Source of the DNA: Candidatus Hodarchaeota archaeon
GTDB taxonomy: Archaea > Asgardarchaeota > Lokiarchaeia > Sigyniarchaeales > SOKP01
Direction: 5' to 3'
DNA length: 64,000 bases
Assembly: GCA_048886685.1 (NCBI GenBank)
Contig: JBHLKM010000015.1
Span: 49,073-113,072 of the forward strand
Part shown: one piece after another, positions 40,786 to 64,000 of the stretch
Numbering within the stretch: the stretch's first letter is position 1
Layout: each line of letters begins with the position of its first letter
Notes under the pieces: model-generated
The model's database searches: none
Seen by the model: only the letters and a program-made list of their open reading frames with translations
Told to the model about the DNA's origin: nothing
Made by a program: the position numbers and the translations under genes

Positions 40786-40790
40786 TTTAA

Positions 40791-47775: not shown

Positions 47776-47911
47776 AAAATCTTTGCTCACGAACATACTC
47801 CTTTTTTACCATTCCAAATACTTCCGCAATCCCTCAAGCCCTAAGCCTGAACCTTGTGCTCCCCTTTCGACTTCCACACACTCGTGCTATTGAGAGTAGC
47901 AGGCTAAATAG
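47776..47911. repeat. Repeat B1: copy of the 23S rRNA 3' tip plus trailer
   Basis: 47831-47911 matches 63881-63961 at 80/81 nt; also gctcacgaacatactcctt. Confidence 0.95.
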
Positions 47912-48785
47912 ATTTTTTCAGCTTTTTACTAAGAAAAATTACTACAATAAATGAAATACTAAGTAGTGAAAATAGACTATATCCTGGAATTCTTTCGGTA
48001 GTCTTAAGTTGAATTGTTATCGAAAATTCTTCTGTAATATAATTTTCTTTGCTAATGGTGATAATTCCCGTAAGAGTATTTGAAGTCATCATATGTGTAG
48101 GGTAATTAAGTATGTATGTACCATTAGAAGTTTCAGTAAAATCATAAGAAGAGTCCCCTATTGTCAGTATAATAGTAGCATTTAATACAGGAATACCTCC
48201 TCGAGTAGGATCAGTCAAGTTAATTCCAATAGGGACCACACGACCTTTAGCAACGCTTATTTGATTATTCTTAAAATTACTACTCAAAGAATATTCAAGA
48301 ACCCTTTTCATAATTATTAAAAGAACAGTCGCATTTTTTGAATCGTAGTTCTCTTTATCAAAAGTTGCAATTATCTCATACGTTCCAACATCTCTCGTTT
48401 CAGTCTCGAAATCTAACACATAATGATGATTCCCAGTTTCAATAAGAAATCCGCTGCCGCTGTCAATGGTTTCATTCAGATTGTTAAATTGCTTCCAAGA
48501 ATAAGAGGCATTACTTAATCCTGTTAATGGGACACCTGATTCATTTGTATAGGTAAATGTAAAATTAACAGCATCCCAAATAAAGATGTTCGTATCTAAG
48601 TGGAATTCTGAACTCTCATTTATAAGAGTTGGTAAGTCTGCTGAATATTCTGGTATCTCTATCTTAAAATTCATAAAACTGCCATTTATATTCGGTTGTC
48701 TTAAGTCTTTTAAATACACTAAACTTATGACATTGATAAAAAGAGATATCAGAATTATTGTTCTTAATTTCTTATTTAATTTCAC
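47904..48785 (-). CDS. Secreted Ig-like surface protein with IPGY-TM-basic C-terminal anchor
   Basis: Signal-like N-terminus; C-terminus RIPGYSLFSLLSISFIVVIFLSKKLKKSI. Confidence 0.8.
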   Translation of the reverse strand: MKLNKKLRTIILISLFINVISLVYLKDLRQPNINGSFMNFKIEIPEYSADLPTLINESSEFHLDTNIFIWDAVNFTFTYTNESGVPLTGLSNASYSWKQFNNLNETIDSGSGFLIETGNHHYVLDFETETRDVGTYEIIATFDKENYDSKNATVLLIIMKRVLEYSLSSNFKNNQISVAKGRVVPIGINLTDPTRGGIPVLNATIILTIGDSSYDFTETSNGTYILNYPTHMMTSNTLTGIITISKENYITEEFSITIQLKTTERIPGYSLFSLLSISFIVVIFLSKKLKKSI

Positions 48786-48845
48786 CTTATTTTCGCCTAA
48801 TCCTATTTCTAAATAATCTAAATTATATTAGATCCGCTTATTATT

Positions 48846-49046
48846 TTAAGTTATGAAAATTCTATAGTTCTTCAAATCAATATTTATTACACTTATGTAA
48901 AAAGGACAAATAGTATTTAATGTCTTTGACATTAAAATCATATCAATAATTATGAAAAATCCACCAAAAACGACAAACAAATACCTTATAGTCCTGTATT
49001 TTCTTGGAATAAGATATAGTAGAAGTTCCGCCATTTTTGATTTCAC
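48846..49046 (-). CDS. Small hypothetical membrane protein or fragment
   Basis: 66 aa with one TM segment; weak support. Confidence 0.35.
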   Translation of the reverse strand: MKSKMAELLLYLIPRKYRTIRYLFVVFGGFFIIIDMILMSKTLNTICPFYISVINIDLKNYRIFIT

Positions 49047-49150
49047 TCAAATTATATTAGATGTACTAATAAAATGTAATTTGGAAGTAAGTAATAATTA
49101 AGCTAAATTCCTTTTTAAATATATATTTCAATTAACACTCTTAGTCTGAA

Positions 49151-49204
49151 CAATTTACCACCATTTATGTTCAATTTACCATTATTTATGATAAATTTAC
49201 TACT
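49151..49204. promoter_or_regulatory. Three AATTTAC direct repeats with 21-bp period
   Basis: caatttaccaccatttatgtt / caatttaccattatttatgat / aaatttactact upstream of 49269. Confidence 0.6.
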
Positions 49205-49268
49205 AAACTAAGGAGAAACATTTTTATTATGGAACGATGTTGATTTTTATTATTTCAGTGAGAATAAG

Positions 49269-50345
49269 ATGAGAAAATCTGGAGAAATTCGAGTAATAAT
49301 ATTACTATTATTAGGAATACTGTTTGCTTTTTTACCAAAATTTACCACCAATCTTAATTTTAAAAACTCAGAGTGTAATGATAATATAAGTTTAGATAAT
49401 GAAAATTTGAAAATTTCAAAAATATCAGGAAAAATTCATATTGATGATACCAATCCAAGTATGAACTGGTCTGTTGCGAGAGATGCGGGAATTTGCATAG
49501 GGAATGGCACTTATTCTGAGCCGTATGTCATAGAGGATTTAGTAATAAACGGCGTTGGTTCAGGAGATTGCATTTTAATCGAAAATTCGGATGTATACTT
49601 TAGGATTGAAAATTGTACGGTCTACAATTCTGGGATTTACCCTCTTAGTGGAATCTTGGAACCTTGGTATCATTTTGCAGGAATCCGATTAGAAAATGTA
49701 AACAATTCTTTATTACTTGATAATGATTGTTCCTCTAACAATGATGGAATACACGTAGCTGGTTTTAATAACACCATTTCGGGAAATACCGCAAATAACA
49801 ATATTAATGGGTCTGGAATATTTGTAGATGGTTTTAAAAACACCGTTGAGGGAAATACCGCAAATAACAATGATTTTCCTGGGATATGGTTAGGTGGATA
49901 TAATTCCACGGTTTCAGGAAATACTGCAATGAATAATAGTTTCGCAGGTATTGGGATAATGTTAATGAATTGTTATTACAACAATGTTTCTGGAAATACC
50001 GCAGCTATACAATTATTTGATAGCGATTATAACAATGTTTCTGGAAATACTGGAGCTGGAATAGCCTTGTTTGCTAGCGATTATAACACTATTTCAGGAA
50101 ATACTGCAAGTTATAGGATAATTTTAGATGAAAGCGATTATAATACCATTTCTGGCAACGAAGCATGTTGGGAGGAACGTGGTGACTGTGAAGGAAACGT
50201 ATTTAGCGATAACAATGGACCTTGTCCCCCGCCTAAAGAAGGAATTCCAATTGAATTAATAATTTTAATTTCGGTTCTTAGCGGGGGGGCAGTGATAGGG
50301 CTAACAACGATTCTGTTAATTAGACACAAAAGGAAAAGAATTTAA
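49269..50345 (+). CDS. NosD/CASH right-handed beta-helix surface protein with C-terminal TM anchor
   Basis: GNGTYSEPYVIEDLVI, repeated NTISGNTA units, C-terminal TM plus basic tail. Confidence 0.88.
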   Translation: MRKSGEIRVIILLLLGILFAFLPKFTTNLNFKNSECNDNISLDNENLKISKISGKIHIDDTNPSMNWSVARDAGICIGNGTYSEPYVIEDLVINGVGSGDCILIENSDVYFRIENCTVYNSGIYPLSGILEPWYHFAGIRLENVNNSLLLDNDCSSNNDGIHVAGFNNTISGNTANNNINGSGIFVDGFKNTVEGNTANNNDFPGIWLGGYNSTVSGNTAMNNSFAGIGIMLMNCYYNNVSGNTAAIQLFDSDYNNVSGNTGAGIALFASDYNTISGNTASYRIILDESDYNTISGNEACWEERGDCEGNVFSDNNGPCPPPKEGIPIELIILISVLSGGAVIGLTTILLIRHKRKRI

Positions 50346-50390
50346 TAGTATATTTTTTTTTAAATATCTCCCTACTTTAATTAATACAAC

Positions 50391-50448
50391 TTTTTCAAAG
50401 GAATTTTCATTGAAATCAGACGCTGAATTTACCTTTCCATTCCAATTT
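50391..50448 (+). repeat. Repeat A copy 4 (full)
   Basis: tttttcaaaggaattttcattgaaatcagacgctgaatttacctttccattccaattt. Confidence 0.97.
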
Positions 50449-50467
50449 CAAAGGAAATCTTCTTTAA

Positions 50468-51259
50468 CTATTTTTTCCCATAAATAATTGACGAACCACC
50501 AATTTTCGTCACTTTCTCCTGACTTTTTTGAATTATTTTTTCTACAACACCAGATATAATATCTTTCTGTAATTTTTTACATCCCAATATAACATCTTCT
50601 TCTGTTAAGAAGGAAAAAGTTGAAATACTATCCCTATACTTTCTTTTCAAATAGGATTCTGGTGTCTCATTTATCACTACCTCATCTTGAAAACATATAT
50701 CAAAATCTACATTTGAAAACCCAACATTTTCAAGAAGTTTAGTAATCTCTCCTACATCAGGAATTCTTGTTAAGTCCACATTAAGACCTTTTGGAAAGTA
50801 GTGATAAAACCAGAATGCTCGCATTTGTGTATGAGAACAAGAATGTATTGCTATATATGCTTCTTTCCGAAGTATACGATAGGCTTCTCTTAAGAAAGAA
50901 TTTTTGTTTTTAACATGATGGAGTACTTGGATTGCAAATATCCCATCAAAAGTTTCAGAATTGAAAGGAAGATTTTTAATATTACCATATATAAAATTTA
51001 ACATAGGATATTTCATATGAGCTTGTTTAATCATATCTATGGATATATCAATTCCGATGATGAATTGTGTTATTTGTTGCAGTGCTGCTGTATAATTTCC
51101 AGTGCCACTACCCATATCAAGAATTATTGAGTTTTGATCTATATGTAATAATTTAATCAACTTTTCTACTGTTTCACTATTTGAAGCCCTGCTTATATCG
51201 TAGATTTGACTTATTTTTTCATAACTAATAGATTTATTATATTTCCCCATATAACTCAT
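50468..51259 (-). CDS. Class I SAM-dependent methyltransferase (type 11)
   Basis: ILDMGSGTGNY, LPFNSETFD, VLHH. Confidence 0.9.
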   Translation of the reverse strand: MSYMGKYNKSISYEKISQIYDISRASNSETVEKLIKLLHIDQNSIILDMGSGTGNYTAALQQITQFIIGIDISIDMIKQAHMKYPMLNFIYGNIKNLPFNSETFDGIFAIQVLHHVKNKNSFLREAYRILRKEAYIAIHSCSHTQMRAFWFYHYFPKGLNVDLTRIPDVGEITKLLENVGFSNVDFDICFQDEVVINETPESYLKRKYRDSISTFSFLTEEDVILGCKKLQKDIISGVVEKIIQKSQEKVTKIGGSSIIYGKK

Positions 51260-51302
51260 TATTTTAAGTTTTATCTATGACACATATAAAGCAGTTTTTC
51301 AA

Positions 51303-52022
51303 TTAATAAACTATTTTAATCAAATCTTTTAGACTAGTTATTTTTTTAGCATATTTAATAGCGATACTGTCGTGATATGATAATTCATGTTTAGCAGTAT
51401 TTTGACGTTCAATTAAAATGGGAGATATATTAGCATTATATGCCGCTTCTACATCTTCAATCGTATCTCCAATATAGCAAACTTCAGAGGGTTGTAATTT
51501 TGTTTGCTTTAAAGCAAAAGAAAGGATTTGAGGATTTGGTTTCTTAACTCCTACCTCACCTGAAATTACAATTGAATCAAAAAAGTCCCTAAGCTCCAAT
51601 TTTGTTAATAAGGAATTCACGTGAGGTGGGTGATCAAAATTAGTTATTAAAGCAAGAATTTTGTCTTTTTTCAATATTTTTAAAATTGGAATTGCATTTG
51701 GATCTAAGGTTATATATTTTTGCCAAGTATTGAGACCCTTATCAGCTGCTAATCGTATCTCGTCATCTTCCAATTTTAAACCTATTTCAATACTTAAATC
51801 ATAAATTTTGTTTTCAAATATCGTTAAATGTTCTTTTTTAATTGGATTCTTAGCCTTAACAACAAATAGGTCCCACTTTAAATTAAATGATTTTTTTGAT
51901 ATTTTTAAGCCTAAATTTCTTAAGTATCTGTATATTTCTAAAAGCCCGTCCTCCTGTGACCTTTCCAAATCATTATAAATCAATAGTGTTCCATAAAGAT
52001 CAAAAAATACTCCTTTTATCAT
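51303..52022 (-). CDS. HAD-superfamily hydrolase
   Basis: FDLYGTL, LITN, KPNP, YIGDTIEDV. Confidence 0.92.
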   Translation of the reverse strand: MIKGVFFDLYGTLLIYNDLERSQEDGLLEIYRYLRNLGLKISKKSFNLKWDLFVVKAKNPIKKEHLTIFENKIYDLSIEIGLKLEDDEIRLAADKGLNTWQKYITLDPNAIPILKILKKDKILALITNFDHPPHVNSLLTKLELRDFFDSIVISGEVGVKKPNPQILSFALKQTKLQPSEVCYIGDTIEDVEAAYNANISPILIERQNTAKHELSYHDSIAIKYAKKITSLKDLIKIVY

Positions 52023-52196
52023 TGTCTTTCTATATAGATGATTCTTTCCTTATTAAATTATAAATTAGCTATATAAATATTATTAAAAATAACGATATTA
52101 AAGTGTGAGGAATAAATAATTAAGACTTTAAATCATAAAGTTAATATTTTTTAGAAAACTTTTTCGATTCCGAATCTTTCTTGATTTTACTTTGTG

Positions 52197-52280
52197 TTTT
52201 CAAAGGAATTTTCATTGAAATCAGACGCTGAATTTACCTTTCCATCCAATTTTCACAGAAAATTGGGACAAAATTAAAAA
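52197..52280 (+). repeat. Repeat A copy 5 with extended right flank
   Basis: ttttcaaaggaattttcattgaaatcagacgctgaatttacctttccatccaattttcacagaaaattgggacaaaattaaaaa. Confidence 0.97.
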
Positions 52281-53455
52281 TCTAATAAGGTTGCAATAGT
52301 AGCTTTTGAAAGTTTTTCCAGACTTCTGAAATCCATGAATTGAGACGTATCAGCAGGTGTATGGTAGAGCTCTGTTCGAAAATTTGCCCCGTCGACGATA
52401 CTTATTGCTGGAATATTATGTCTCCAAAAGGGTGCATGATCCGTCCGTAAAAGATCTGGAAATTGTTGATTAATTTGTTCATACCCCATAGGTGCCTTAA
52501 TTCCTATGTATGGCACATCAATTTCTTTCAATTCACATTTTTCCAAGAATTTATCCAATAGACTATTTGAATTTTGATCACAAAGAATGTACATAAAATT
52601 CCCAATTTCTTTTTCCCAATCAACTCGATATGATGTCCAGAAATCTGGGGGAATAGACGGTAACCGATGAGTTTTGTGTTCCTCTCTTATCCAACCAACA
52701 GCATCATAGTTAATAACACCTTTGATTGATTGAGATTCTGAGCTTAAAGAATCTACAAAATGGTTGCTTCCCACCAAAAATCTTTCTTCAGCACCTTTTA
52801 ACGGGTTCAAATCCGAATAAAAATTTTGCAAAGCTTTCAAAAATTCTAAGTTTGACTTTGAAAGTTGTTCTTTATTCTGCTCGATCACTGTTTGAACCGC
52901 TTCACCAACATTTTTTCTTGCTCTAAAATATTTGATTATTAATTTGTCACATTCCCTCATTATCTGATGCATTTGTGCAGTGGAATACCTCCATTGGGAA
53001 TCGAAAATCCCATATTTCAATCCTAGATCTCGTCGTTTTTTCATCAATCCAGGATCACCTTCTTCCAAAGTAAACGAGGCTATAATAATTGAAGGAGGAT
53101 TTTCCAATTGTGCCATAATCCGAGCAACTTCCAAGGATATTGCTACTGCAGAAAAATTATCATTAGCCCCAGGACAGTTTGGAACTGTATCATAATGTGA
53201 ACCAATTAATATCGCAGGAGAATTTTGATCCCCGATATAACCAAGTATATTTTTAAAAGTATCATCTAAGTCCGATACCTTAAATTCTTGAAATTCAACT
53301 TTCAGCCCATAACTTTCAAGTTCGTCATAAATATATTCTGCTGCTTCATTTAACTCCAACATATTGTCTAATGGATAACAAGGCCCTTCTAAATTGAGCA
53401 CATGTCGGTAAATTTGCTCTATATCTACTTGCTGAATTATTCTTTCATCATTCAT
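52274..53455 (-). CDS. M28-family metallopeptidase
   Basis: IGSHYDTV…PGANDN, FTLEE, RTDHAPFW, YHTPADT. Confidence 0.92.
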   Translation of the reverse strand: MNDERIIQQVDIEQIYRHVLNLEGPCYPLDNMLELNEAAEYIYDELESYGLKVEFQEFKVSDLDDTFKNILGYIGDQNSPAILIGSHYDTVPNCPGANDNFSAVAISLEVARIMAQLENPPSIIIASFTLEEGDPGLMKKRRDLGLKYGIFDSQWRYSTAQMHQIMRECDKLIIKYFRARKNVGEAVQTVIEQNKEQLSKSNLEFLKALQNFYSDLNPLKGAEERFLVGSNHFVDSLSSESQSIKGVINYDAVGWIREEHKTHRLPSIPPDFWTSYRVDWEKEIGNFMYILCDQNSNSLLDKFLEKCELKEIDVPYIGIKAPMGYEQINQQFPDLLRTDHAPFWRHNIPAISIVDGANFRTELYHTPADTSQFMDFRSLEKLSKATIATLLDF

Positions 53456-53580
53456 AATTTATCCCATATTTGATTCATTTGGGTTTAAGTGTTAAATAAC
53501 ACTATGGATTAAAGGTAAGGAAGAAAAGGTTTCTTAAAAGCCTTTTGAACTATAATTATAATTTAAGATTTTTTTATCTT

Positions 53581-53626
53581 TTTTCACCAAATTTTCATTG
53601 AACTCAGACGCTGAATTTACCTTTCC
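53581..53626 (+). repeat. Repeat A copy 6
   Basis: ttttcaccaaattttcattgaactcagacgctgaatttacctttcc. Confidence 0.95.
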
Positions 53627-54087
53627 TAACTTTTCTATATGCACTCGAAGAGTTAGCCTATGATATTTATAAAAATTTTGGAGGATTAATAGATACTTAT
53701 AATGGTAATATCAAACCGTTTAAAGGAATAGAAGACATAATTAACCAACATCTAAATATCTCGCCAAAAGTGAAACTTAATCAAACGGAAAAAGATATAA
53801 TAGAAAAAACAAAGTCACAACTAACTCAAACAGAGCGCGAGGTGATGAATCGACTAAAAGAAAAGTTAAAAGATTTACTTAAAAAGTTTAATGATGATGA
53901 TTTTTTTCCTTATCCATATATCTTTAAGCCTCCAAGTCCCCCTGGAGATGACGTGTTACAGGGGCAACTAAAACCAGAATTTATACCACCCAAAAAAAAG
54001 CAAGAATTTGAGCCTTATTGCAAGCATTGTGGTGCTGAACTACCTGCTGTACAATTAATTTGTCCTGCTTGCGGAAAGAAGATTTAA
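53626..54087 (+). pseudogene. 5'-truncated gene with C-terminal zinc ribbon (ORF track 53770..54087)
   Basis: Frame stays open with protein-like sequence (ALEELAYDIYKNFGGLIDTYNGNIKPFKGIEDII) back into repeat A6, with no ATG; ends YCKHCG…CPACGKKI. Confidence 0.65.
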
Positions 54088-54526
54088 GGAAACAATAAAA
54101 TCTTAGTGAATTTAGTTGTCTTCTAATTTAGAAGAAGAAGAAGAAGATTCTCGATCTCACTAGACACTTTATCCAGAAACAGCAGGTAAGCAGTGCCATC
54201 GCGATTTCATTACTTAGGAAAAAAATGGGCAATGAGTAAAGATTTTGTATTTCTAAGACACCTTAATACTTGATTGTTACAACAGATGTAGTGTCAAGTA
54301 GAAAGAATAGATTATATCCCCTCTTTCTTTCCATATTTCAGTTTACTTATTTCGGAATCCTCTTTTTTTTTACTTTTTTTCCACATATGGCACAAACCCG
54401 TCTTATAAGGTAAAGTCTTAAAAGAAAAGTGTGATCTTTTCTCATATCGACCATTTTATTACAATTTTTACACCAATAACGTCTCATTTAACCTCTCTCA
54501 CTACCTCATTAATATTTCATTCATAA

Positions 54527-54742: not shown

Positions 54743-54785
54743 TTCTTCTGTTATAATTATCTATTAAACATTTTTGTAATATAAT

Positions 54786-55290: not shown

Positions 55291-58014
55291 ATGAAAAAAT
55301 CAAGGTTTAGTTTAGTTCTTATAGTGATTATTCTAATTAGCTTTTCATTTTCTAGTTATGTTAAGCGAATAGAACCTAAAAGTCAAACTGTTGGAAACAT
55401 AGATAATGTAAAAATGTCAGGAACAGCTCCTTTCATATTTGGATTAGATTCAGAGATGGACGACTTAGATCCTCATAATTCATTGGATATAGCGGTAATT
55501 GAGCAAGTATGCGAAAAACTATTTGCATATAATCTAACTGATCCTAACTTACCAATTATCCCTCAATTAGCTTCTGATTTTGGAACATGGGATGGACCTA
55601 ATCCAGATGGAACATGGAATTATAATGTTCCTCTTAGAAGTGGTGTCTATTTTCATGATGGAACTGTTTTTAATGCAACTGCTGTAAAATGGAGTTTTGA
55701 TAGACTCTATTATTTTGTTGATAACGATCTCACTAAAATTGGAGGATTATATGAATTTTACGATGAGACGGTGGGTGGTTTGGTTTCTATCATTAATAGA
55801 GTTGAAATTGTTAATGAATTTGAAGTAAAATTTGTTTTAAATAAGTATTATGCTCCTTTTGAAGATTTACTTACATTCCCTGGTTCAAGCATATTATCTC
55901 CTGCATCCACGCCAGCTACTAGTTTTATTAATACTTATTTCGGTGATTTAGTAGGCACTGGGCCATTTGATTATGATGCCTATCATAAAAGTATAGAAGA
56001 AATCTATTTTCATGCTTTTGAGAATTATTGGGGTGATAAAGCCGATATTGATAGTATGATCTTCAAAGTTATCAGTGATGATACTTCAAGGAATAATGCT
56101 TTATTAAGTGGTACTGTTCATTTCATAGCTACTCCATTAGTTTCCTTTTATTCGTCTATTCAAACAGATCCAGATACAGTTCTCTTAGATTCCGGGTTGG
56201 TAGGGCCTACTGTAACTTACTTGGGGATGAATAATAATCTAATTAATTCAACATTCAGAAAAGCAATATCATATACGATTGATTATTCCTCTATAATTGA
56301 GTTTTATGTAGATGTTAGAGATAATGGGGCAGTAAGGGCAAAATCTCCAATTGCTGAAGGAATGAAATACTCAAATTCAACTTTTGATGCTGCTTATTTT
56401 AATATTACTAAAGCGAGAATAATTATGCAAAGTATGGGGTATGGTACTGGGTTGGATCCAACATGGCCGGGTTTAAATGAAACTGAATGGACCTCGTCTA
56501 TTTTTGATTCATTTAATTTTACCTACCATACCGGAAGTACAATTAGAGAAAGATTATCAGATTTACTCATTGCTAATCTTTCTAAAATAGGTATAGAGAT
56601 TACTCCCGCTGAAATATCATATCCTGAATTTATGTATAGCTTATTTGAGCTTGGAGGCTTCAATAGAGACATGCTACAACTCTACTGGTTAGGATGGGGA
56701 GCAGATTTTAATGATCCCAGCAATATTATAGATCATTCATTTACGAATAGAACTATTGATGGAAATGGTGTTCAATATAATGGTTATGAAGCTGCAATAG
56801 AGGCAGGAAGAAATCCATATGATTTAAATGATAATGTTCAGTTATTGATGGAAGCGGCATTACAAGAGATTAATTCAACAGTAAGAGAGGGTTTGTATGA
56901 CAGGATTCAGGAATTGCTTGTAGAAGAAGATATGCCATGGGCATTTTTAATTAGCCCTAATGTTACTTATGCTCATAATGTCAATTTAACAAATTTTCCA
57001 GAAAATAGGATGGGTAGAATATACTTTTATCCTTGTCAATGGAATGCTCCAGCCAGTACTCTCTCTGCACCTTCAAGCTTAACAGCAGATACAATTTCAT
57101 GGAATCAGATTAACCTTCAATGGATAGATACCGAATCAAATGAAGATGGCTTCCGAATTCAACGTAAATTAGGAGTAACTGGAGATTATATGGAGATTGC
57201 TACAGTAGGACCTAATATTAATACATATATTGATACTGATTTATTACCTGGTGGTATCTATTATTACAGAGTTCAAGCATATAACTTTACTCTCGGAAGT
57301 TCAGCTTGGTCAAACGAAGGAATAAATACAACTCTATCTGCCTTAGCTCCAATTTTAAATGTAATAACTCCCAATCCTGATATAGACGGAGATATTTTCT
57401 TAAATTGGAGTGATGTCGATGGTGCCTCTTATTATTATGTATATCGAGATACAGGACTAATTACGGACCTCTCAGGATTAGTTCCTATATCTAGTCCTGC
57501 AATTTCACAATATAATGATAACGGCTTACTCGAAGGAACCTATTATTATGTGATTACTGGGTATAATGCCGGTGAAGAAACACCAATCTCGAATTGTGAA
57601 TCTGCAACAGTTGACCTTCCTGAACCAGATGCCCCGGTTTTAAGTTCTATCACACCAAACCCTGATACAGATGGAATTGTAAATTTAGAATGGAATGATA
57701 TAGTTGGTGCTACTAGTTATAATGTATATCGAGACACATCGCTAATTACGGACATCTCAGGATTATCTCCTATATCTAGTCCCACAATTTCACAATATAA
57801 TGATACTGAATTAGCCGTAGGAACCTATTATTATGTGATTACCGCAGTGGGTATAGGGGGAGAATCCTTGATTTCAAACTGTGAATCAGTAGAGATAACT
57901 CAACCACCGGTTACTCCCAGGATACCTGGATTTGATTTATATTTATTTTTACCTATTGTATCAATAATCTTAATAGGAAAGATTATTCGATCCAAGAAAA
58001 AAACAATCAAATAA
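55291..58014 (+). CDS. Family 5 ABC substrate-binding protein fused to FN3-like domains, with IPGF-TM anchor
   Basis: LRSGVYFHDGTVFNA, VGTGPF, YLGMN, GWGADFNDP; FN3 YYYRVQAYN; RIPGFDLY…KKKTIK. Confidence 0.9.
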   Translation: MKKSRFSLVLIVIILISFSFSSYVKRIEPKSQTVGNIDNVKMSGTAPFIFGLDSEMDDLDPHNSLDIAVIEQVCEKLFAYNLTDPNLPIIPQLASDFGTWDGPNPDGTWNYNVPLRSGVYFHDGTVFNATAVKWSFDRLYYFVDNDLTKIGGLYEFYDETVGGLVSIINRVEIVNEFEVKFVLNKYYAPFEDLLTFPGSSILSPASTPATSFINTYFGDLVGTGPFDYDAYHKSIEEIYFHAFENYWGDKADIDSMIFKVISDDTSRNNALLSGTVHFIATPLVSFYSSIQTDPDTVLLDSGLVGPTVTYLGMNNNLINSTFRKAISYTIDYSSIIEFYVDVRDNGAVRAKSPIAEGMKYSNSTFDAAYFNITKARIIMQSMGYGTGLDPTWPGLNETEWTSSIFDSFNFTYHTGSTIRERLSDLLIANLSKIGIEITPAEISYPEFMYSLFELGGFNRDMLQLYWLGWGADFNDPSNIIDHSFTNRTIDGNGVQYNGYEAAIEAGRNPYDLNDNVQLLMEAALQEINSTVREGLYDRIQELLVEEDMPWAFLISPNVTYAHNVNLTNFPENRMGRIYFYPCQWNAPASTLSAPSSLTADTISWNQINLQWIDTESNEDGFRIQRKLGVTGDYMEIATVGPNINTYIDTDLLPGGIYYYRVQAYNFTLGSSAWSNEGINTTLSALAPILNVITPNPDIDGDIFLNWSDVDGASYYYVYRDTGLITDLSGLVPISSPAISQYNDNGLLEGTYYYVITGYNAGEETPISNCESATVDLPEPDAPVLSSITPNPDTDGIVNLEWNDIVGATSYNVYRDTSLITDISGLSPISSPTISQYNDTELAVGTYYYVITAVGIGGESLISNCESVEITQPPVTPRIPGFDLYLFLPIVSIILIGKIIRSKKKTIK

Positions 58015-58182
58015 TTCTTTTTTTTTTCATTTTTGTGAAGTAAGTTGCCTTGTTTATAAAAACTTCTACTCTGATTTTGTTTAGATAGCATAGAGAAAGT
58101 AAGGTTTTATTAAGAAATAAGAAATTAGAAAATACATTAATAAAATGAAAAATAAAGCAAAAATACATCTCAAGAAAACTAG

Positions 58183-58219
58183 TTGAAATCAGACGCTGAA
58201 TTTACCTTTCCATTTCAAT
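58183..58219 (+). repeat. Repeat A copy 9 (left part missing)
   Basis: ttgaaatcagacgctgaatttacctttccatttcaat. Confidence 0.9.
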
Positions 58220-58494
58220 GCTAATTTGAAGACCTTGAATCAAAACTTAATTTTATAAAACTGAAATTAGAAATTTCTAATTTTGTTAAATAGATCTAAA
58301 TTTGTTTTAGAAATCTTAATGAGTTAAAACAGAATAAATTCAGTAAAGGTTTAAAGTTCATTCTAAGTTCAGCAATTAAATCTATTTTATTAATAGTTAG
58401 TACAATATTCATAAGTATTGAAATAATGAAAAGGAATTTTATGGTTGAGAAAAATTGTTTGAATCAAGTCCAATTACTTTAAATCAACTAAATT

Positions 58495-60441
58495 ATGGCT
58501 CAAATAGAATCTCTAGAATTAAATAAGATAGAACGTCTCGTAAATGAGGGTAGATTTGATGATGCCCTTCAATTGATTAATAAATTTGAAGAGGGAGGAG
58601 ATATTTCTCTTTATGATAAAGTATCATGTAATCTTTTTAAGGGAGAGCTATTATATCAGCAAGGATTATTTGAAGATTCATTTCAACTTGCCAAACACGC
58701 TTATAAAGAGAGTTTGGGATTAGGAAAAAGCCTTTTAACCATTGATTGCTTATATGGTATGGCAATAAACTTAATCAGCCAAAGTAAAACTAAAGAAGCG
58801 GATCTATTAATAAAACAGGGAGAAGAACTTCTTGAAGTTATACCTCAAATAAGCCCAAAGGATTACAAGAAAAGAGAAGCAGCATTAATCTATCTTAAAG
58901 GATTGGTTTTTCATCCATGGACATCTCAAGAAAGTAATATAAATCTCGCAGTAAAATATTTCCAAGAAAGTTTAGCGATATATGAAAGTTATGATAATAA
59001 AGATGGAATAGTTGGATACCTTGTATTAATTAGTTCTATATTTAATCTGATAGGTGAATTAGAAAAAAGTTTTGAGAATATAGAGCGAGCTTTACATCTA
59101 GCTACGGAATTAAACAGAAAACACTCTATAGGATGGATTTTGTTTATTAAAGGCACATTTTATCATCTAAAGGGGAAGATCGATGAAGGTGTTAAACTTT
59201 ATCAGCAGAGTTTATACATTTTTAAAGAACTCAATAATTACAATATGGTTGCCAGTCTGCTTAACAATCTAGGTGGAATTTTTAAATTGAAAGGAGATCT
59301 AGATCACGCTTTGGAATGTTTAGAAGAGGCTGTAGAATTAGGTACCAAATTTAGTAGTTTGAAAACCATAGCAAATTTTTATGATTATTTAATTCAAATT
59401 TTAATTGAGAAAGGAGAGATCAGCAGGGCAGAAGAATGTTTAGAGAAATTAGATCAAATAAGTAAACAATTGAATCTAAAAGAAACATATTGCATATTCT
59501 TTTTTAACAAGGCTTTGATTTTAAAAACTAGTACTCGTGTTATTAATCGAGGGAAAGCAGAAGAGCTATTAAAACGAGTCCTCGAATTGGATCCAATTTA
59601 CGAATTTAAAATAGGAGCTCTAATTAATTTAAGTGATTTACTTCTAATAGAATTAAAGACGACACATAATTTAGAAGTTTTGCAAGAAATAGAAAGATAT
59701 ATTAACCAACTAATAACAATTGCAGAAAATTCGGGTTCATATGAGGTGTTGGGAGAATCTTACCTTCTACAAGCCAAATTAGCCTTAATATCATTAGAAT
59801 TGGAGGATGCTAGAAGATTATTGACTCAAGGACAACAAATTGCTGAAAAATTCGGACTACAACAATTAGCAATGAAGATTTCAAACGAACATGATGATCT
59901 ACTGAAAGAATTAAGTAACTGGGAAAAATTAAGAGAATCAAAAGCATCTTTGCCTGAACGAATGGAATTAGCTCGTTTGAATGAACAAATAGAAGGAATA
60001 ATTAAAAAACGTGTCATTGAAGTTCCAAAACTGCCTGAAGAGACACCAATGTTACTTTTAATTTTATCAGAAGGAGGAGAATCCCTTTTCTCTCAATATT
60101 TTATAGACGACCAATCGATAGACGATCATCTTTTTGCAGGTTTCTTAAGTGCTATTAATTCATTTATTAATGAAATCTTTTCTGAGGGTCTTGATAGGGT
60201 GATTTCTGGGGAGCACACTATTCTCTTAAACGCAATGGCACCATATTTTATTTGTTATATCTTCAAGGGTCAATCATATTCTGCTCATTTAAAGATTAAG
60301 GCGTTTATCGATGGTATACAAAGTGATAAAGAAATTTGGGATAGGTTTGAAAGGTTTTTCAAGATAAACCAGGAAATTCAATTAAAAGATGTTCCCTCTC
60401 TCAAAACTTTAATACAAGAGATATTCATTGAAACGACATGA
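58495..60441 (+). CDS. TPR-repeat protein with C-terminal longin/roadblock-like domain
   Basis: TPR helices (LNNLGGIFKLKGDLDHALE); C-terminal LLILSEGGESLFS…FAGFLSAINSF. Confidence 0.85.
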   Translation: MAQIESLELNKIERLVNEGRFDDALQLINKFEEGGDISLYDKVSCNLFKGELLYQQGLFEDSFQLAKHAYKESLGLGKSLLTIDCLYGMAINLISQSKTKEADLLIKQGEELLEVIPQISPKDYKKREAALIYLKGLVFHPWTSQESNINLAVKYFQESLAIYESYDNKDGIVGYLVLISSIFNLIGELEKSFENIERALHLATELNRKHSIGWILFIKGTFYHLKGKIDEGVKLYQQSLYIFKELNNYNMVASLLNNLGGIFKLKGDLDHALECLEEAVELGTKFSSLKTIANFYDYLIQILIEKGEISRAEECLEKLDQISKQLNLKETYCIFFFNKALILKTSTRVINRGKAEELLKRVLELDPIYEFKIGALINLSDLLLIELKTTHNLEVLQEIERYINQLITIAENSGSYEVLGESYLLQAKLALISLELEDARRLLTQGQQIAEKFGLQQLAMKISNEHDDLLKELSNWEKLRESKASLPERMELARLNEQIEGIIKKRVIEVPKLPEETPMLLLILSEGGESLFSQYFIDDQSIDDHLFAGFLSAINSFINEIFSEGLDRVISGEHTILLNAMAPYFICYIFKGQSYSAHLKIKAFIDGIQSDKEIWDRFERFFKINQEIQLKDVPSLKTLIQEIFIETT

Positions 60442-60450
60442 TTTTCTCTC

Positions 60451-60538
60451 TTTTTTCAAAGGTATTTTCATTGAAATCAGACCCTGAATTTACCTTTCCA
60501 TTCCATTTTCACAGAAAATTAAGACAAAATTTAAAAAA
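60451..60538 (+). repeat. Repeat A copy 10 with extended right flank
   Basis: ttttttcaaaggtattttcattgaaatcagaccctgaatttacctttccattccattttcacagaaaattaagacaaaatttaaaaaa. Confidence 0.97.
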
Positions 60539-62573
60539 TCTCATTGATCACCGTTTTGAGCGCGGGGGGCTTATCGAGCTCTAACATCTCACTAGTTTTG
60601 ACCGATTTTTCTAAAGCTTGCCAAATTTCCGAATTTTCCCTTATGGCTTCGGTAAAGCGTGATAACTTTTGCAACGCAGGATATGATTGCCCTTTAATAA
60701 CATAACATGTTAAAAACGGTTCTATCGGGTTTATTAAGATAGTATTTTCACCGATTCTAATTCGATCGATAGATTTAGAAAAGATTTCGTTACTGAATGT
60801 ATTAAAAGCAGACATAAATGAGCTAAAAAGGTTTCTATAATCCCAATTTTCTACGAAAGGATGACTAAAGTACGTAGACCCACCCTCACCCATAACAAGG
60901 AGTAATATTGGCTCCTCTTCCACTAACTCAGGAGGATCTACTGCCTGTTTTCCTTTTAATCGGTTAATGACCCCGTCAAAGGAAGCTAATTCGATTCTAT
61001 CTGCCATCGGAGCGTTTTCATACTTAAGTTTATCCCACTCCTCAGTTTTCTCAAGTAGAATATCGTATTCATTGGAAATCTTTTGTGCTAACAAGTTAAG
61101 ACCGTGGTCCTCTGCGATCTGTTGAGCTTGCATATATAAAGATTTTCCTCCTTCAAGATCCAATTGAATTAATGCCAACTTAGCTTGAAGTAATTTTGCC
61201 TCACCCAACCATGAAAACGAATGTTGGTTATCTGCGATTTTAAGAAGTTGAATAATCAATGGGGATATCTCATCTATTACTTCTGAATTATTGTAGATAG
61301 ATAGTTCTTCTAAGAGAAGATCACACAATGTAACTATCGCTAAAATATGAAATTGAGCGAAAACAATATCATGCTCAACTATTTGTTTTAATAGTCTTTC
61401 AGCATCAGTATGATCACGCATTCGGCTACTCATTTTTAATATTGATGCTTTTCCTAATAGATATCCCTGCTCAAATAATATGCTTTCATGCTGAACTGAG
61501 AGATTTTCTAATTGTTTTAAATTCTCTTGTGCTTGTTCACGGGAGTTGTTATCAAGGTTGATTAATAATAAGGCTAACAACGGAAATACCATGGATAAAC
61601 GACTTCCAATCTTTTCACCAAGTACCAAAGCCTGCTCAAAATACTCTATAGCTTGATCATTTTCACCTCCCTCCCTGCAAATTTCCCCAATAATCCGTTT
61701 ATTAAAGCTTAAATCAAAGTAATTTAAACTTTCTTCTGCTAATTTGGTTGACTGTTTAATATATTTTAAAGCTTTATTCAACTCACCTTTACTATGGTAA
61801 ATCTGCCCAATAATCCTCGTTGAGGCTGCCTTAATAAAATCGCTTATTTTCTCTATAGATAGGGACTTCTTACAAAATTCTAATGCTCTATTAAGATCTC
61901 CCTTAGCAAAATATGTTAATCCTATTGTGGAAAGAATATGTGCGATGCCGGTTTGAAAATCTAATTTTTCAAAGAGTTTTAAACTCTTCATGGCGTATTC
62001 TAAGGCTGTATCCAGTTCTCCTTTTTGAAACCATATGATGGCAATTAAGTCTAAGGTATATCCAACTTGAACGTCATATTTTATTTTTTCTCCTAGAGTT
62101 AAAGCTTCCAATGCTAAATCTAATGCAATATTATAATTAATCTTGAAAAGATAAATCCTAGATTTCAAATACGTTAGAAGGAATTTTAACTTAGCATTAT
62201 TAGCGGGAGATCCATTTGAAAGAGTATTAAATAATTCTTCGGCTTTTGAAATTAAATCAAGTGCTTCATCATGTTTTCCTAAGTATGCAATAACAGCCTT
62301 AAGGAAGAGTGCTTCAATAGATTCCGGAACCAATCCTAATTCTTGACTCATCGAATAAGCAAGTTCGCCGACTTCTACTGCTTCTTTCAATTGAGCTGTT
62401 AAACGATATATATTTCCTTTTAAAAGTAGTGCCGATAATTGATCTTTAGAAGTAAGTTCAATCTTTTTCTCAAAATTTATAACCATTTCGAGCGCTTCTC
62501 TTACTTTCCCGTTATACATGAGTTCTTTTGCGCAGATTAAATCCTCGGGTCTTGGATCGGACATCACTTTCAC
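60531..62573 (-). CDS. TPR-repeat protein with C-terminal longin/roadblock-like domain (paralog of 58495)
   Basis: Same architecture; shared LLQAKLALI, KISNE, CYVIKGQSY motifs. Confidence 0.85.
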   Translation of the reverse strand: MKVMSDPRPEDLICAKELMYNGKVREALEMVINFEKKIELTSKDQLSALLLKGNIYRLTAQLKEAVEVGELAYSMSQELGLVPESIEALFLKAVIAYLGKHDEALDLISKAEELFNTLSNGSPANNAKLKFLLTYLKSRIYLFKINYNIALDLALEALTLGEKIKYDVQVGYTLDLIAIIWFQKGELDTALEYAMKSLKLFEKLDFQTGIAHILSTIGLTYFAKGDLNRALEFCKKSLSIEKISDFIKAASTRIIGQIYHSKGELNKALKYIKQSTKLAEESLNYFDLSFNKRIIGEICREGGENDQAIEYFEQALVLGEKIGSRLSMVFPLLALLLINLDNNSREQAQENLKQLENLSVQHESILFEQGYLLGKASILKMSSRMRDHTDAERLLKQIVEHDIVFAQFHILAIVTLCDLLLEELSIYNNSEVIDEISPLIIQLLKIADNQHSFSWLGEAKLLQAKLALIQLDLEGGKSLYMQAQQIAEDHGLNLLAQKISNEYDILLEKTEEWDKLKYENAPMADRIELASFDGVINRLKGKQAVDPPELVEEEPILLLVMGEGGSTYFSHPFVENWDYRNLFSSFMSAFNTFSNEIFSKSIDRIRIGENTILINPIEPFLTCYVIKGQSYPALQKLSRFTEAIRENSEIWQALEKSVKTSEMLELDKPPALKTVINEIF

Positions 62574-62660
62574 TAAGTAAAAATTGGATCTAAAATAAGG
62601 GAAGAAGGATTTCCTTAAAAGCCTTATGTACGAGAATTTCGATTTCTGATTTTCTTTAGT

Positions 62661-62708
62661 TTTTTCAATGGAATTTTCATTGAAATCAGACGCTGAATTT
62701 ACCTTTCA
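62661..62708 (+). repeat. Repeat A copy 11
   Basis: tttttcaatggaattttcattgaaatcagacgctgaatttacctttca. Confidence 0.95.
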
Positions 62709-62729
62709 TGAATATAAAATTAAAAAATA

Positions 62730-62850
62730 AAATCTAAGCTCAAGAACATACTCCTTCTAATCCATCTCAATCTCATCCGTTTCCTACCAGCCAAAATACG
62801 ACCACAAACCCTCAAACCCTAAGCCTGAACCCTGTAATCCTCTCTCGATT
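62730..62850. repeat. Repeat B2: diverged copy of the 23S trailer
   Basis: aagctcaagaacatactccttc…ccctcaaaccctaagcctgaaccctgt is colinear with about 63808-63923. Confidence 0.88.
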
Positions 62851-62871
62851 AATTGATTTTAAATTAAATAA

Positions 62872-63696
62872 TTAAGAAGAAAGGATTTGTTTTATAAATT
62901 GTATACTATTAAGAAGATTTTTTGCGCTAGCTAACTCGATTACCAGTGCTCCTTTATATCCATAATCTCGTATTATGTCAATAATTTTGGGAAAATTAAC
63001 TTTACCAGTCCCTAAATCTGGATGAGTATCTGAATTCTTATCAAAATTTTCAACGATGTGCACATTTTTTATCCTCTCATGAAATCTCTCCCAGAAGACT
63101 CCAACATTCCCATCATTCGTCCATAAATGGGATGTATCATAAGTAATATACAAATCTGAACGATTTAGTTTAGAGAGAAAAAATTCAATCTCATCCTCAT
63201 CCAAAAATATATTCATCCGAAAATTTGGCATATTTTCTAAACATATTTTAACACCGTAATCAATAGTAGCGTTCAATAATTTATCAACGGAACCTACTAA
63301 TCTTTTTTTAGCTCTCATTCCAAGACCTGAGAAACCAGGATGAACCACCATAATTTCTGCTCCGATTTCCTGGCATATTTGAGCCGTTTGGACATAACAA
63401 TCTATTGATGATCTCGCGATCCAAGGATTACTTGAACACAATGATAAATCAAGAAATGGAGCGTGTATTTGTTTTTTAATAGAATAGGAATTACATAGTT
63501 CAATAAATCTCTTTTGACTCTCTTGATTTAACACATCTGGTGGTTCTAACACCACTTCACATATCTTAAAATTATTCTCTTCTGAAAATTCCAAACACTC
63601 TTTTGATGATTCAATTAATACGTCAATTAAATTAGTATATTTTCCCGAACGAAGACAATCTCCCCAATTTCCCGAAGAACTAATAGCTAATTCCAT
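62872..63696 (-). CDS. Sugar phosphate isomerase/epimerase (AP endonuclease 2 TIM barrel)
   Basis: IHAPFLD, VVHPG, CLENM, YDTSH, HPDLGTGKVNF, LVIE. Confidence 0.9.
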   Translation of the reverse strand: MELAISSSGNWGDCLRSGKYTNLIDVLIESSKECLEFSEENNFKICEVVLEPPDVLNQESQKRFIELCNSYSIKKQIHAPFLDLSLCSSNPWIARSSIDCYVQTAQICQEIGAEIMVVHPGFSGLGMRAKKRLVGSVDKLLNATIDYGVKICLENMPNFRMNIFLDEDEIEFFLSKLNRSDLYITYDTSHLWTNDGNVGVFWERFHERIKNVHIVENFDKNSDTHPDLGTGKVNFPKIIDIIRDYGYKGALVIELASAKNLLNSIQFIKQILSS

Positions 63697-63806
63697 TAAA
63701 TAAACCTCGTAATTAAATATAGATGTGTTTATTTTTTTGATTAATAATTATTAAAAATTTCCTATTAATCACGGATTAATGAGATTTATCGGTTAAAAAT
63801 AAAAGT

Positions 63807-63919
63807 AAAATCAAAGCTCAAGAACATACTCCTTCCTACTCATCCCAAACTTATTCTTACCAGTCAAAACACGCTTCATACCCTCAAGCTCTAAGCCTGA
63901 ACCTTGTGCTCCCCTTTCG
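63807..63919 (-). other. 23S rRNA 3' trailer, probably including the 3' strand of the pre-23S processing stem
   Basis: Purine/GC-rich segment right after the 23S end on the minus strand (GGGGAGCACAAGGTTCAGGCTTAG); pairing partner would lie outside the window. Confidence 0.55.
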
Positions 63920-64000
63920 ACTTCCACACACTCGTGCTATTGAGAGTAGCAGGCTAAATAGGTCGCCCGAAAGCTCCCTACGTACACCCCTACCTCACCA
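63920..64000 (-). rRNA. rrl: 23S rRNA, 3'-terminal ~80 nt (gene continues beyond the window; mature end approximate)
   Basis: Reverse complement TGGTGAGGTAGGGGTGTACGTAGGGAGCTTTCGGGCGACCTATTTAGCCTGCTACTCTCAATAGCACGAG fits the archaeal 23S terminal helices (GGGGTGTA…TT[CT]AGCCTGC…CAAT..C.CGAG), with pairings GUAG/CUAC and UAGG/CCUA and a UUCG loop. Confidence 0.85.

Follow-up and report, generated by a model that had tools for sequence, protein, structure and literature searches.

The DNA directly downstream of the 23S rRNA gene is probably a recombination and insertion hotspot throughout the genus of this Hodarchaeota archaeon, i.e. a place where homology-anchored, integrase-free insertions displace former 23S tails. 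The site is fixed and its content varies between species. It is described here from a 64,000-nt stretch of genome G000 (the window), which ends together with contig C15 (Table 1).

The window contains an 81-bp direct repeat (family D14), whose copies A and B lie 16,050 bp apart and agree at 80 of 81 positions, the sole mismatch being at 47840/63890; the repeat comparison confirms what a sequence-only reading had reported. Each 81-mer consists of 42 nt of the 23S tip and 39 nt of trailer, and the earlier estimate of about the last 40 nt of 23S plus trailer was therefore right. The 23S assignment comes from Rfam. At the gathering score nothing was found in the window, because window and contig stop after just 81 nt of the gene; when the search was run by E-value, positions 2908-2987 of LSU_rRNA_archaea corresponded to 64000->63920, minus strand (38.4 bits, E = 3e-8, 5'-truncated). 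On the trailer side of the repeat a weaker similarity goes on (109 nt at 90%, then a conserved terminal block), and on the 23S-internal side the similarity ends abruptly at 47911|47912.

The repeat and its junction are confirmed as genuine. A false join or a collapsed rRNA repeat might be suspected of producing the second copy, as copy B lies at a contig end within the rRNA gene and no full rRNA gene has been assembled, but such an artefact has next to no probability, and for the junction the matter is settled against it. Copy A sits inside a 113-kb contig between unique flanks, and its gene-side junction recurs with the abutting gene at 100% identity in Logan contigs from three run assemblies (SRR30758825, -27 and -28; L068-L070), each of which ends exactly 30 nt (k-1) into the repeat. 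Two other MAGs (GCA_048886345.1 and GCA_048938465.1, contigs L066/L067) are colinear through copy A at 99.99%, the single-base difference between A and B is phased with trailer B by Logan contigs, and the same architecture is seen in many independent assemblies. Across the 23S gene, C15 and C30 are not physically joined in the assembly; all same-genus assemblies break within 23S, and the complete locus is present in no closed genome.

The genome has a single 23S gene, the first ~990 nt of which lie with the leader at the start of contig C30 (C30:1-1160); G000 has no second copy of this leader. In the pre-23S processing stem, the trailer forms the 3' strand. An alignment of ten genuine 23S ends gave its block structure (Table 1), the leader contains the complements of both conserved blocks, and the computed duplex of trailer B with the G000 leader reaches -86 kcal/mol versus -46 for shuffled sequence.

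Table 1. Features of the window discussed in the text
Feature	Coordinates	Strand	Description
Whole variable region	36683..63919		27.2 kb, last conserved core gene to 23S 3' end
Conserved HTH-domain gene	36293..36682	+	Inner boundary of variable region (synteny)
Distal-block remnant	36684..36705	-	Degenerate, weak, read by eye; directly after core gene
Spacer repeat, ~60 nt, ten copies	40617..62718	+	Core TGAAATCAGACGCTGAATTTACCTTTCC; repeat families D2/D3
TPR-gene remnant	47528..47637	-	In-frame, internal, ~36 codons; 91% nt identical to 61235-61344 (D10)
Orphan trailer A, distal part	47765..47830	-	Shortened middle, conserved distal block GGAGTATGTTCGTGAGC, T-tract
81-bp repeat copy A	47831..47911	-	Orphan tip 47870-47911 and proximal trailer block 47831-47869
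293-aa gene	47904..48785	-	Last 8 nt including stop codon 23S-derived
Intact TPR (MalT-like) gene	60531..62573	-	After trailer C and spacer repeat; counterpart of remnant by copy A
Orphan trailer copy C	62735..62848	-	Full-length trailer, 0 nt of 23S
AP_endonuc_2 / xylose-isomerase-like TIM-barrel gene	62872..63696	-	Sole gene between trailers B and C
Functional trailer B	63815..63919	-	Proximal conserved block, variable middle, distal conserved block GGAGTATGTTCTTGAGC, then T-tracts
81-bp repeat copy B	63881..63961	-	42 nt 23S tip and 39 nt proximal trailer block
23S rRNA gene 3' end	63920..64000	-	LSU_rRNA_archaea 2908-2987, cut by contig C15 end

The discrete 16-kb island of the sequence-only reading does not hold, since the variable region is longer and a third trailer copy (C) lies within the block; two more copies are on contig C2. 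According to Pfam the region carries accessory genes only. The same interval measures 0.7 kb in G017, the closest relative, and 8-9 kb, with different genes, in G004, G022 and G007. G017 has its orthologs of the window genes at 30.5-36.7 kb (68-96% amino acid identity) directly beside the 23S trailer, which makes it a relative without the inserted DNA, and the orthologs of the HTH-domain gene adjoin the 23S trailer or the array in G017, G004, G022, G007 and G002. The earlier remark that the block holds no integrase agrees with the Pfam search, in which there was no mobility gene in 36683-63919 and no integrase or transposase in any of ~10 arrays, nor an integrase beside them. Each genome has one strong Phage_integrase match, located elsewhere; in G000 this is the only strong tyrosine recombinase, at C2:183 kb.

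Turnover is also seen between strains. From trailer B across the TIM-barrel gene to trailer C, Logan contig L064 matches the window at 100%; it diverges exactly at the T-tract of C, i.e. the variant breaks at a trailer boundary, and its DNA beyond that point is absent from G000 and 52 genus genomes. The TIM-barrel gene is found exactly, with both flanks, in L064 and L065.

The five tail copies of G000 retain 0, ~14, 42 or about 150 nt, or the whole, of 23S. Trailer C pairs with the leader at -88 kcal/mol, and its proximal block is closest to the functional trailer of G017 (90%). The distal part of trailer A is ~72% identical to that of B, and the duplex of A (-68 kcal/mol) is the weakest of the five copies. 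The tips of A and B are identical at 42/42, and the 80/81 identity ends exactly where the conserved proximal trailer block ends. We find it doubtful that the insertion was recent, as had been supposed: the TPR remnant by copy A differs from the intact gene by 9%, and an identity that stops at the limit of the proximal block fits gene conversion as well as recency. Trailer A is followed after 143 nt, in the same sense, by this remnant, which mirrors the layout 'trailer C - spacer - TPR gene', and copy A would therefore once have headed the array. On the other side of copy A, the 293-aa gene aligns with giant surface-protein genes (1,200-2,700 aa), and solely with their C-terminal ~230 aa. The distal-block remnant after the core gene has clearer counterparts in G017 (L034:6227-6250) and G004 (L024:6271-6310), and a second, marginal one is at 37401-37451 (nhmmer E = 0.43).

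Trailer or tip matches occur in 19 of 23 same-genus genomes. Orphans number more than 30, and at least 14 genomes of the genus have ones with non-23S upstream flanks. Where the contig also has a genuine 23S end, every orphan hit (20/20) is co-oriented with 23S. Grouping by genome is seen in the tips and proximal blocks but not in the middle and distal parts. In most orphans the tip is similar to the resident 23S (G009_3735 is identical to the 23S of its genome at 42/42), so either gene conversion must be added to the account or the orphans arose in situ and were not imported. There are also orphans of another type: G009_9423 is 97% identical to the G006 type versus 90% to its own, and a G037 orphan equals the G031 tip at 47/47, yet differs from the 23S of G037. 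Array genes move as well: the DUF4760 gene lying between D and E has a homolog (84%) in the G015 array, with a different 23S-derived flank, and a Ras-like fragment has a 90% homolog in the G009 array. The same geometry also occurs at a protein gene, nrdD.

These data bear on a tandem segmental duplication in situ, running from 42 nt inside 23S through the trailer and the downstream genes, in which the distal copy decayed by deletion and the 81 nt were kept alike by conversion. Such an event could just as well have left the TPR remnant, which parallels the intact gene downstream of C, and the grouping of tips by genome and the uniformly direct orientation of the orphans are also in its favor. 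We nevertheless regard it as unlikely. Beyond the 110-nt remnant the DNA after A is unrelated to the DNA after B or C, the divergence is uneven (1% for the tip, 9% for the TPR remnant and about 28% for the distal trailer), some orphans carry the signatures of other lineages, and array contents are wholly different between species.

A second repeat accompanies the trailers. The spacer-repeat copies of the window (starts at 40617, 42118, 50387, 52192, 53575, 54780, 55057, 58160, 60448 and 62657) all lie opposite to the 23S strand, at gene-block boundaries and on both sides of copy A. Genome-wide there are 40 copies, clustering at contig ends, and the core is also present in the arrays of relatives, invariably antisense to 23S. 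The repeat is not related to the trailer. The window, L026, L028 and L033 all contain the composite 'trailer - T-tract - spacer repeat'. There is a hint here of a separate, possibly enzyme-driven cassette system.

The orientation of the spacer repeat relative to the 23S copies, fixed across species, and the recurring composite would suit site-specific integration, with the 23S tip as att, A as attR, B as attL and a recombinase encoded elsewhere (such as the single XerA-like enzyme or one that acts on the spacer repeat). The layout of gene, insert and 3' duplicate points the same way, and this part of the sequence-only reading stands; its attL/attR bracket around a discrete island does not, given the third copy inside and the scattered breakpoints. 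Site-specific integration is in our view very unlikely. The 5' breakpoints of more than 30 orphan copies range from -146 to +15 and occupy nearly all of these about 160 positions, the 3' extents vary too, the ~10 arrays have no integrase in or beside them, and the block lacks an element-like gene set. In other words, the 23S 3' end proposed earlier as target or anchor is better kept as a homology anchor, which is also favored here, than as an att site.

Orphans might instead be kept because they serve neighbouring genes as terminators, as 3'-end processing or stability modules, or as decoys for the 23S leader. It is in accordance with this that in 22 of 29 cases the orphan directly follows a same-sense ORF, that many keep the distal block and T-tract, and that in the computed duplexes the pairing of C and D with the leader is as strong as that of B. 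However, about a third of the orphans are without distal block and T-tract, orthologous orphans decay differently between genomes (G004_5221 is full length and G007_10386 truncated; G015_6285 and G021_9090 likewise differ), and no array contains a leader duplicate or leader-like partner, so that we hold such reuse to be improbable.

Under the preferred reading, homology-anchored insertion, new DNA would repeatedly enter at the 23S 3' tip or trailer, the 23S gene would keep or regain an intact 3' end and processing-stem trailer, and the old tip and trailer would be pushed downstream as an orphan. Copies A (47780-47911) and C would be displaced former array heads; copy B is the working one. Entry might proceed by a single crossover that integrates circular DNA bearing part of the tip and trailer, or might combine one homologous junction, within the conserved 23S, with one illegitimate junction. 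Once in place, the direct repeats would permit deletion, exchange and gene conversion over short tracts. Such conversion would hold the tips and proximal blocks close to the resident 23S and may be the source of the 80/81 identity. We infer the recombination mechanism, the order of events and the conversion, since no donor, circular form or same-strain empty-site allele was observed. Some findings count against this reading. Orphans retain no more than ~150 nt of 23S, a limit that one-sided, unconstrained recombination would not obviously give, and their position at same-sense ORF ends could reflect selection for function or another mechanism. The likeness of most orphan tips to the resident 23S, the possible duplication origin of the TPR remnant and the spacer-repeat arrays also weigh on this side.

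Several known systems are similar in part. In islands at tRNA and tmRNA 3' ends, attL and attR are the duplicated gene 3' end, serial events yield arrays of fragments, and a tyrosine or serine integrase lies beside att and uses a fixed crossover core. The intact gene, the insert and the displaced 3' fragment in direct orientation are alike here, but the integrase is absent and the breakpoints are scattered. Integron arrays consist of unrelated accessory genes separated by a short recurring repeat at one chromosomal site, which resembles the present array. Unlike integrons, however, it has no IntI, its spacer repeat is conserved in sequence and not just in structure (no attC R''/R' motifs were seen in it by eye), its genes lie in both orientations, and its 23S-derived repeats are without integron counterpart. 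Homology-facilitated illegitimate recombination is described in naturally transformable bacteria, where it usually deletes recipient DNA, with no duplication. Reportedly the work of de Vries and Wackernagel in 2002 and of Prudhomme and colleagues in 2002, it shares with our case one homologous anchor (here 23S), one non-homologous joint and no dedicated recombinase; it fits scattered junctions by a highly conserved gene.

In Campylobacter coli, circles mediated by pcp or tetO were shown experimentally to re-integrate by homologous recombination (PMC10770853). There, too, ordinary direct repeats bracket the cargo and a one-repeat circle re-inserts at a homologous copy without an integrase, but the repeats are protein genes; here they are rRNA tip and trailer, and the circle is hypothetical. 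The Chlamydia rrn-nqrF plasticity zone, as far as the available part of PMC10715202 describes it, is likewise a highly variable intergenic zone directly beside the rRNA operon, where a whole vector integrates via homology and leaves the flanking genes undisrupted. It is bacterial, its anchor is the inv gene and not an rRNA tip, and that part of the source has no mention of rRNA 3' duplicates.

By analogy, the closest precedent seems to be HVR2 of SAR11/Pelagibacter, credited to Wilhelm et al. (2007) and to Grote et al. (2012) in the available part of a summary (bioRxiv 10.64898/2026.04.03.716430). On that account HVR2 is also a genus-wide hypervariable region at a fixed site directly downstream of 23S, with genome-specific, largely accessory or surface-related content and conserved flanks. 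It differs in being bacterial and in splitting 23S from 5S; tRNA genes are held to be the true anchors and phage insertion the driver, and partial 23S 3' duplicates are not mentioned in the same part of the source. Here the footprints are 23S tips and processing-stem trailers, without tRNA or integrase, and there is a second, spacer repeat. The best reading is that the hotspot layout is common to the genus and is not the product of a classical integrase.

The two 81-mers of the window are identical at 80 of 81 positions, in direct orientation and at an offset of 16,050 bp, the sole mismatch being at 47840/63890; in this respect the sequence-only reading was reproduced by sequence comparison. 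It had also taken the terminal sequence for 23S rRNA, about 40 nt of it plus trailer in each copy. An Infernal-type search run in E-value mode aligns positions 2908-2987 of the archaeal LSU model of Rfam with the end of the window, minus strand (a 5'-truncated match, E = 3e-8), which means that each 81-mer consists of 42 nt of 23S tip and 39 nt of trailer. At the gathering score no Rfam family matched in the whole window, because only 81 nt of the 23S gene are present in it: the contig (C15) ends exactly where the window ends. The genome (G000) is a 47-contig, 4.4-Mb archaeal MAG with 30% GC. On the 23S-internal side the likeness of the two copies, A (displaced) and B (the genuine 23S end), ends sharply at 47911/47912. 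On the trailer side the 80/81 identity stops exactly at the end of a conserved proximal trailer block, and from there a weaker likeness reaches as far as the terminal block, which is conserved, and T-tracts.

The junction at 47911/47912, with which the sequence-only reading stood or fell, was checked in independent assemblies recovered via exact-protein look-ups. The gene abutting copy A is present at 100% identity in Logan contigs from three runs, all of which end exactly 30 nt into the repeat (k-1, k = 31). The contigs of two other NCBI MAGs are colinear from 37.9 kb to 54.4 kb and 54.8 kb, i.e. across copy A, at 99.99%, and contigs beginning 30 nt ahead of the A/B difference link that base to trailer B. 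The junction thus held in the Logan contigs and in both MAGs; misassembly is excluded for the copy A and B junctions, and we give next to no weight to an assembly artefact as the explanation. The 5' ~990 nt of the 23S gene, together with the only leader of the genome, were located by nhmmer and blast at the start of contig C30, therefore a single 23S gene, its middle unassembled, probably links C15 to C30. We note that a whole-genome Rfam family search of G000 (RF02540, RF01959) gave no match even though this 5' part is there, so that its negatives for fragments are unreliable; cmscan on the C2 fragment was also without a match, as internal fragments of a 3-kb model score poorly. No 23S was found in G005 and G021, which are listed as single-contig genomes and are uninformative on linkage.

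The anatomy of the trailer was derived from an alignment of ten genuine 23S ends. Next to the conserved proximal block comes a middle that varies, then a distal block that is again conserved (GGAGTATGTTCTTGAGC), and finally T-tracts. Since the 23S leaders of G007, G023, G013 and G000 hold the complements of both conserved blocks, the trailer is, judged by complementarity, the 3' strand of the pre-23S processing stem. The duplexes predicted for the five G000 copies with the single leader range from -68 to -88 kcal/mol, as compared to -38 to -51 for shuffled sequence, and the weakest pairing is that of copy A. Leader copies were sought outside the genuine locus and none was found, in other words the leader is never duplicated. 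This rules out leader-like sequences at the flanks of cassettes as pairing partners of the orphans.

Coordinates of the features discussed (positions on C15 are those of the window)
Feature	Sequence	Positions	Remark
Copy A	G000 C15	47765-47911	42 nt of 23S
Copy B	G000 C15	63815-64000, minus	genuine 23S gene end
Copy C	G000 C15	62735-62848	0 nt of 23S; inside the 16-kb block
Copy D	G000 C2		~14 nt of 23S
Copy E	G000 C2		~150 nt of 23S
81-bp repeat	G000 C15	47831-47911 and 63881-63961	
LSU model match	G000 C15	64000 to 63920, minus	
HTH core gene	G000 C15	36293-36682	inner boundary of variable region
Variable region	G000 C15	36683-63919	
Spacer repeat	G000 C15	40617-62718	ten copies, both sides of copy A
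Laminin_G gene	G000 C15	42600-47450	convergent; 1,616 aa
Tandem domain repeats	G000 C15	44.6-46.3 kb	279 bp; in Laminin_G gene
Surface-domain gene	G000 C15	47904-48785	293 aa
TPR gene	G000 C15	60531-62573	intact
TIM-barrel gene	G000 C15	62872-63696	
nrdD-like gene, 3' end	G000 C15	16779-16972	last 194 nt
nrdD 3' duplicate	G000 C15	17977-18170	
Gene between nrdD duplicates	G000 C15	17167-17808	convergent; 213 aa
23S 5' part and leader	G000 C30	1-1160	
DUF4760 gene	L001 = G000:C2	9110-10100 (stretch with D and E)	between D and E
Departure of strain variant	L064	1194-1337	at window 62728
G004 orphan	L024 = G004:C28	4926-5221	full trailer
G037 orphan	L062 = G037:C1	4111015-4111061	47 nt

G000 contains five tail copies, all in RNA sense. 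Only copy B lies directly 3' of 23S; A, C, D and E adjoin protein genes upstream and are therefore orphans, not working trailers. Matches were found in 19 of 23 same-genus genomes, and mapping against a genuine 23S end revealed partial copies that form arrays downstream of 23S 3' ends, for example seven within 17 kb on G009:C160. On contigs also holding the true end, all 20 orphan matches are co-oriented with 23S. Counted from the 23S 3' end, the 5' breakpoints (>30 copies, at least 14 genomes) occupy nearly all positions between -146 and +15; the 3' extents are variable as well. The orphans stand 3' of a same-sense ORF in 22 of 29 cases, which would suit a functional reuse of the displaced tails; however, they are often cut down in length and orthologous orphans decay differently, so we regard reuse as improbable. 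A closed genome of another genus (G037) has an orphan tip directly after the stop codon of a gene, and this 47-nt tip is identical to that of a different genus (G031) and unlike G037's own 23S.

In G000, G017, G004, G022 and G007 alike, the region into which these arrays fall extends from the 23S 3' end to one and the same HTH core gene. In G017, orthologs of the window genes at 30.5-36.7 kb follow each other in the same order, with 68-96% amino acid identity, directly beside the 23S trailer. The distance from the HTH gene to the 23S end is 0.7 kb in G017, 8-9 kb in G004, G022 and G007, and 27.2 kb in G000. A relative without the inserted DNA, as envisaged by the sequence-only reading, is thus available, but the stretch absent from it measures 27.2 kb and not 16 kb. 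Directly after the core gene there are remnants of trailer ends, in G017, in G004 and, degraded, in the window. Another observation is that the full-trailer orphan of G004 adjoins a tRNA gene and an ortholog of window gene 35667-36167, with a shortened counterpart in G007; orphans therefore occur also beyond the HTH gene, and this "core" gene may itself be an old insertion.

The genes of the arrays are almost wholly different between species and have unrelated accessory functions. Some are surface genes (a Laminin_G giant, a beta-helix, an SBP+fn3 and an anchor-domain gene), and many others encode cytoplasmic enzymes. The Laminin_G protein contains tandem domain repeats. The 293-aa gene product amounts to the C-terminal domain (~230 aa) of giant surface proteins on its own, and G000 has ~10 paralogous matches to it. 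The suggestion that the gene abutting copy A travels with its own 23S fragment was unsupported, as the search gave only paralogs of at most 50% identity, namely C-terminal domains of giant genes. Pfam searches detected no integrase or transposase in any ORF of 36.7-63.9 kb, as had been claimed for the block, nor in the relatives' arrays. A search of G000 for PF00589 gave one match, at C2:183 kb, and each genome has one strong tyrosine recombinase, sited away from the arrays.

A second repeat of ~60 nt, with the core TGAAATCAGACGCTGAATTTACCTTTCC, marks gene-block boundaries regardless of gene orientation. Genome-wide there are 40 copies of this spacer repeat in G000, mostly clustered at contig ends; besides C15 it occurs on C25, C12, C34, C19, C5, C20, C6, C7 and C2. 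Its 28-nt core is identical across species, and it recurs in the relatives' 23S-downstream arrays, always antisense to 23S. The repeat has short inverted repeats and may be the site at which the enzyme of some cassette system recombines DNA. That it is a condensed derivative of the tip and trailer was rejected, since local alignment was no better than dinucleotide shuffles (z -1.3 to +0.9).

The sequence-only reading had likened the block to the attL/attR layout of tRNA/tmRNA-type islands. The geometry is indeed in common, i.e. direct repeats of the target 3' end flank the insert. The rest of the comparison fails: such islands carry a recombinase gene inside next to att, have a defined att core and form one coherent unit between the repeats, whereas here no such gene was found, the 5' ends are scattered, a third copy lies inside, the DNA absent from G017 exceeds the block, and the spacer-repeat array crosses copy A. 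Site-specific integration by a recombinase encoded elsewhere has the same scatter of breakpoints and the lack of integrases in the arrays against it, and there is little probability in its favor. We think it fairly likely that in this region the 23S 3' end anchors an integrase-free hotspot of recombination. Insertions anchored by homology would push former tips and trailers downstream, and the direct repeats would then permit deletion, exchange and conversion.

The history of copy A can be followed in part. Downstream of trailer A, at a distance of 143 nt, there is a ~110-nt in-frame remnant of a TPR gene. It runs in the sense of the intact TPR gene that comes after trailer C and a spacer repeat, and matches that gene at 91%. 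As this remnant mirrors the gene after C, copy A is, as far as sequence can tell, the former head of a "trailer then TPR gene" array, since displaced and eroded. A has not diverged evenly, the figures being ~1% for tip and proximal block, 9% for the remnant, and ~28% for the distal trailer. Across the genomes, most tips and proximal blocks fall together with the resident 23S, which the middle and distal parts do not; exceptions are a G006-type orphan at 9423 in G009 and the G037 orphan with its G031 tip. A mosaic origin with gene conversion would explain both divergence and grouping better than simple duplication and drift, and an in-situ tandem duplication seems rather unlikely to us. An exact-match scan of public metagenome contigs with the unique distal trailer of A gave 0 matches, and neither a donor sequence nor a same-strain pre-insertion allele was found there.

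Turnover is visible between strains and between species. A strain variant (L064 = Logan SRR30758828_137560, from run SRR30758828) matches the window at 100% from trailer B across the TIM-barrel gene and through trailer C, and departs exactly at the T-tract of C, opening a new ORF (MSEIFPQVPYIVLV...). Its tail is absent from G000 and 52 genus genomes, with only weak AT-rich matches in the 52. For the DUF4760 gene between D and E there is an 84% homolog in the array of G015, where the 23S-derived flank is different, and for the Ras-family GTPase fragment beside E (98 aa, C-terminal half only) a 90% homolog in the array of G009. G004 and G022 have the distal serine-dehydratase genes in common and differ in the proximal parts. 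A general polarity of the arrays, with older genes distal, was not retained, as this pair alone shows it. The geometry seen at 23S, i.e. an intact 3' end, an insert and a decayed 3' duplicate, is also found at an nrdD-like gene: its 3' end recurs 1.2 kb downstream with 83.5% identity, the second copy now with a stop codon, and the duplicates bracket one convergent gene.

Among known systems, integrons have IntI with an adjacent attI, and here no integrase is near any array; attC sites are imperfect palindromes with conserved structure and variable sequence, and the spacer repeat combines short inverted repeats with a core invariant across species. A more speculative and less probable reading is that the tip and processing-stem trailer are a portable homology handle: blocks with a tip or trailer copy would loop out between direct repeats, cross cells or species and re-insert at a sequence nearly identical in relatives, possibly together with the spacer-repeat cassette system. 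These Asgard archaea would thereby possess a platform for gene capture anchored on rRNA. By analogy, and just as tentatively, the tip plus trailer would functionally replace attI/attC and be used by the host homologous recombination with no integrase. Homology-facilitated illegitimate recombination, the product of which has one homologous joint and one illegitimate joint at microhomology, is reportedly among the closest systems. So are the tRNA-type islands as regards geometry, the repeat-mediated circular intermediates of Campylobacter coli (PMC10770853) and Chlamydia's rrn-nqrF plasticity zone, a variable zone beside the rRNA operon (PMC10715202). HVR2 of SAR11, also among the closest systems, is a variable region directly downstream of 23S whose content varies between genomes (bioRxiv 10.64898/2026.04.03.716430); likewise, the position described here is fixed beside 23S across the genus, and its content differs between species and between strains. 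The literature was searched for accounts of 23S-tip orphans from Asgard or Lokiarchaeal genomes and for the accession and run numbers concerned, and nothing specific came up.

There are practical consequences. What looks like a GC-rich "structured RNA-like" island against the AT-rich background of these genomes is often an orphan 23S tail and not a new RNA gene, and contigs of these genomes break off at 23S, its orphans and the spacer repeats. The orphans are half processing stems which, according to the predicted duplexes, are still able to pair with the single leader; transcripts of them, if made, could disturb rRNA maturation. Gene influx into Asgard archaea is central to ideas on the origin of eukaryotic gene repertoires, and to our knowledge few entry points for genes have been described in this group. 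Through a fixed, integrase-free hotspot on the most conserved gene of the genome, accessory genes would have a simple way in from other species, and the hotspot would be an archaeal parallel to the rRNA-flanked hypervariable region of SAR11.
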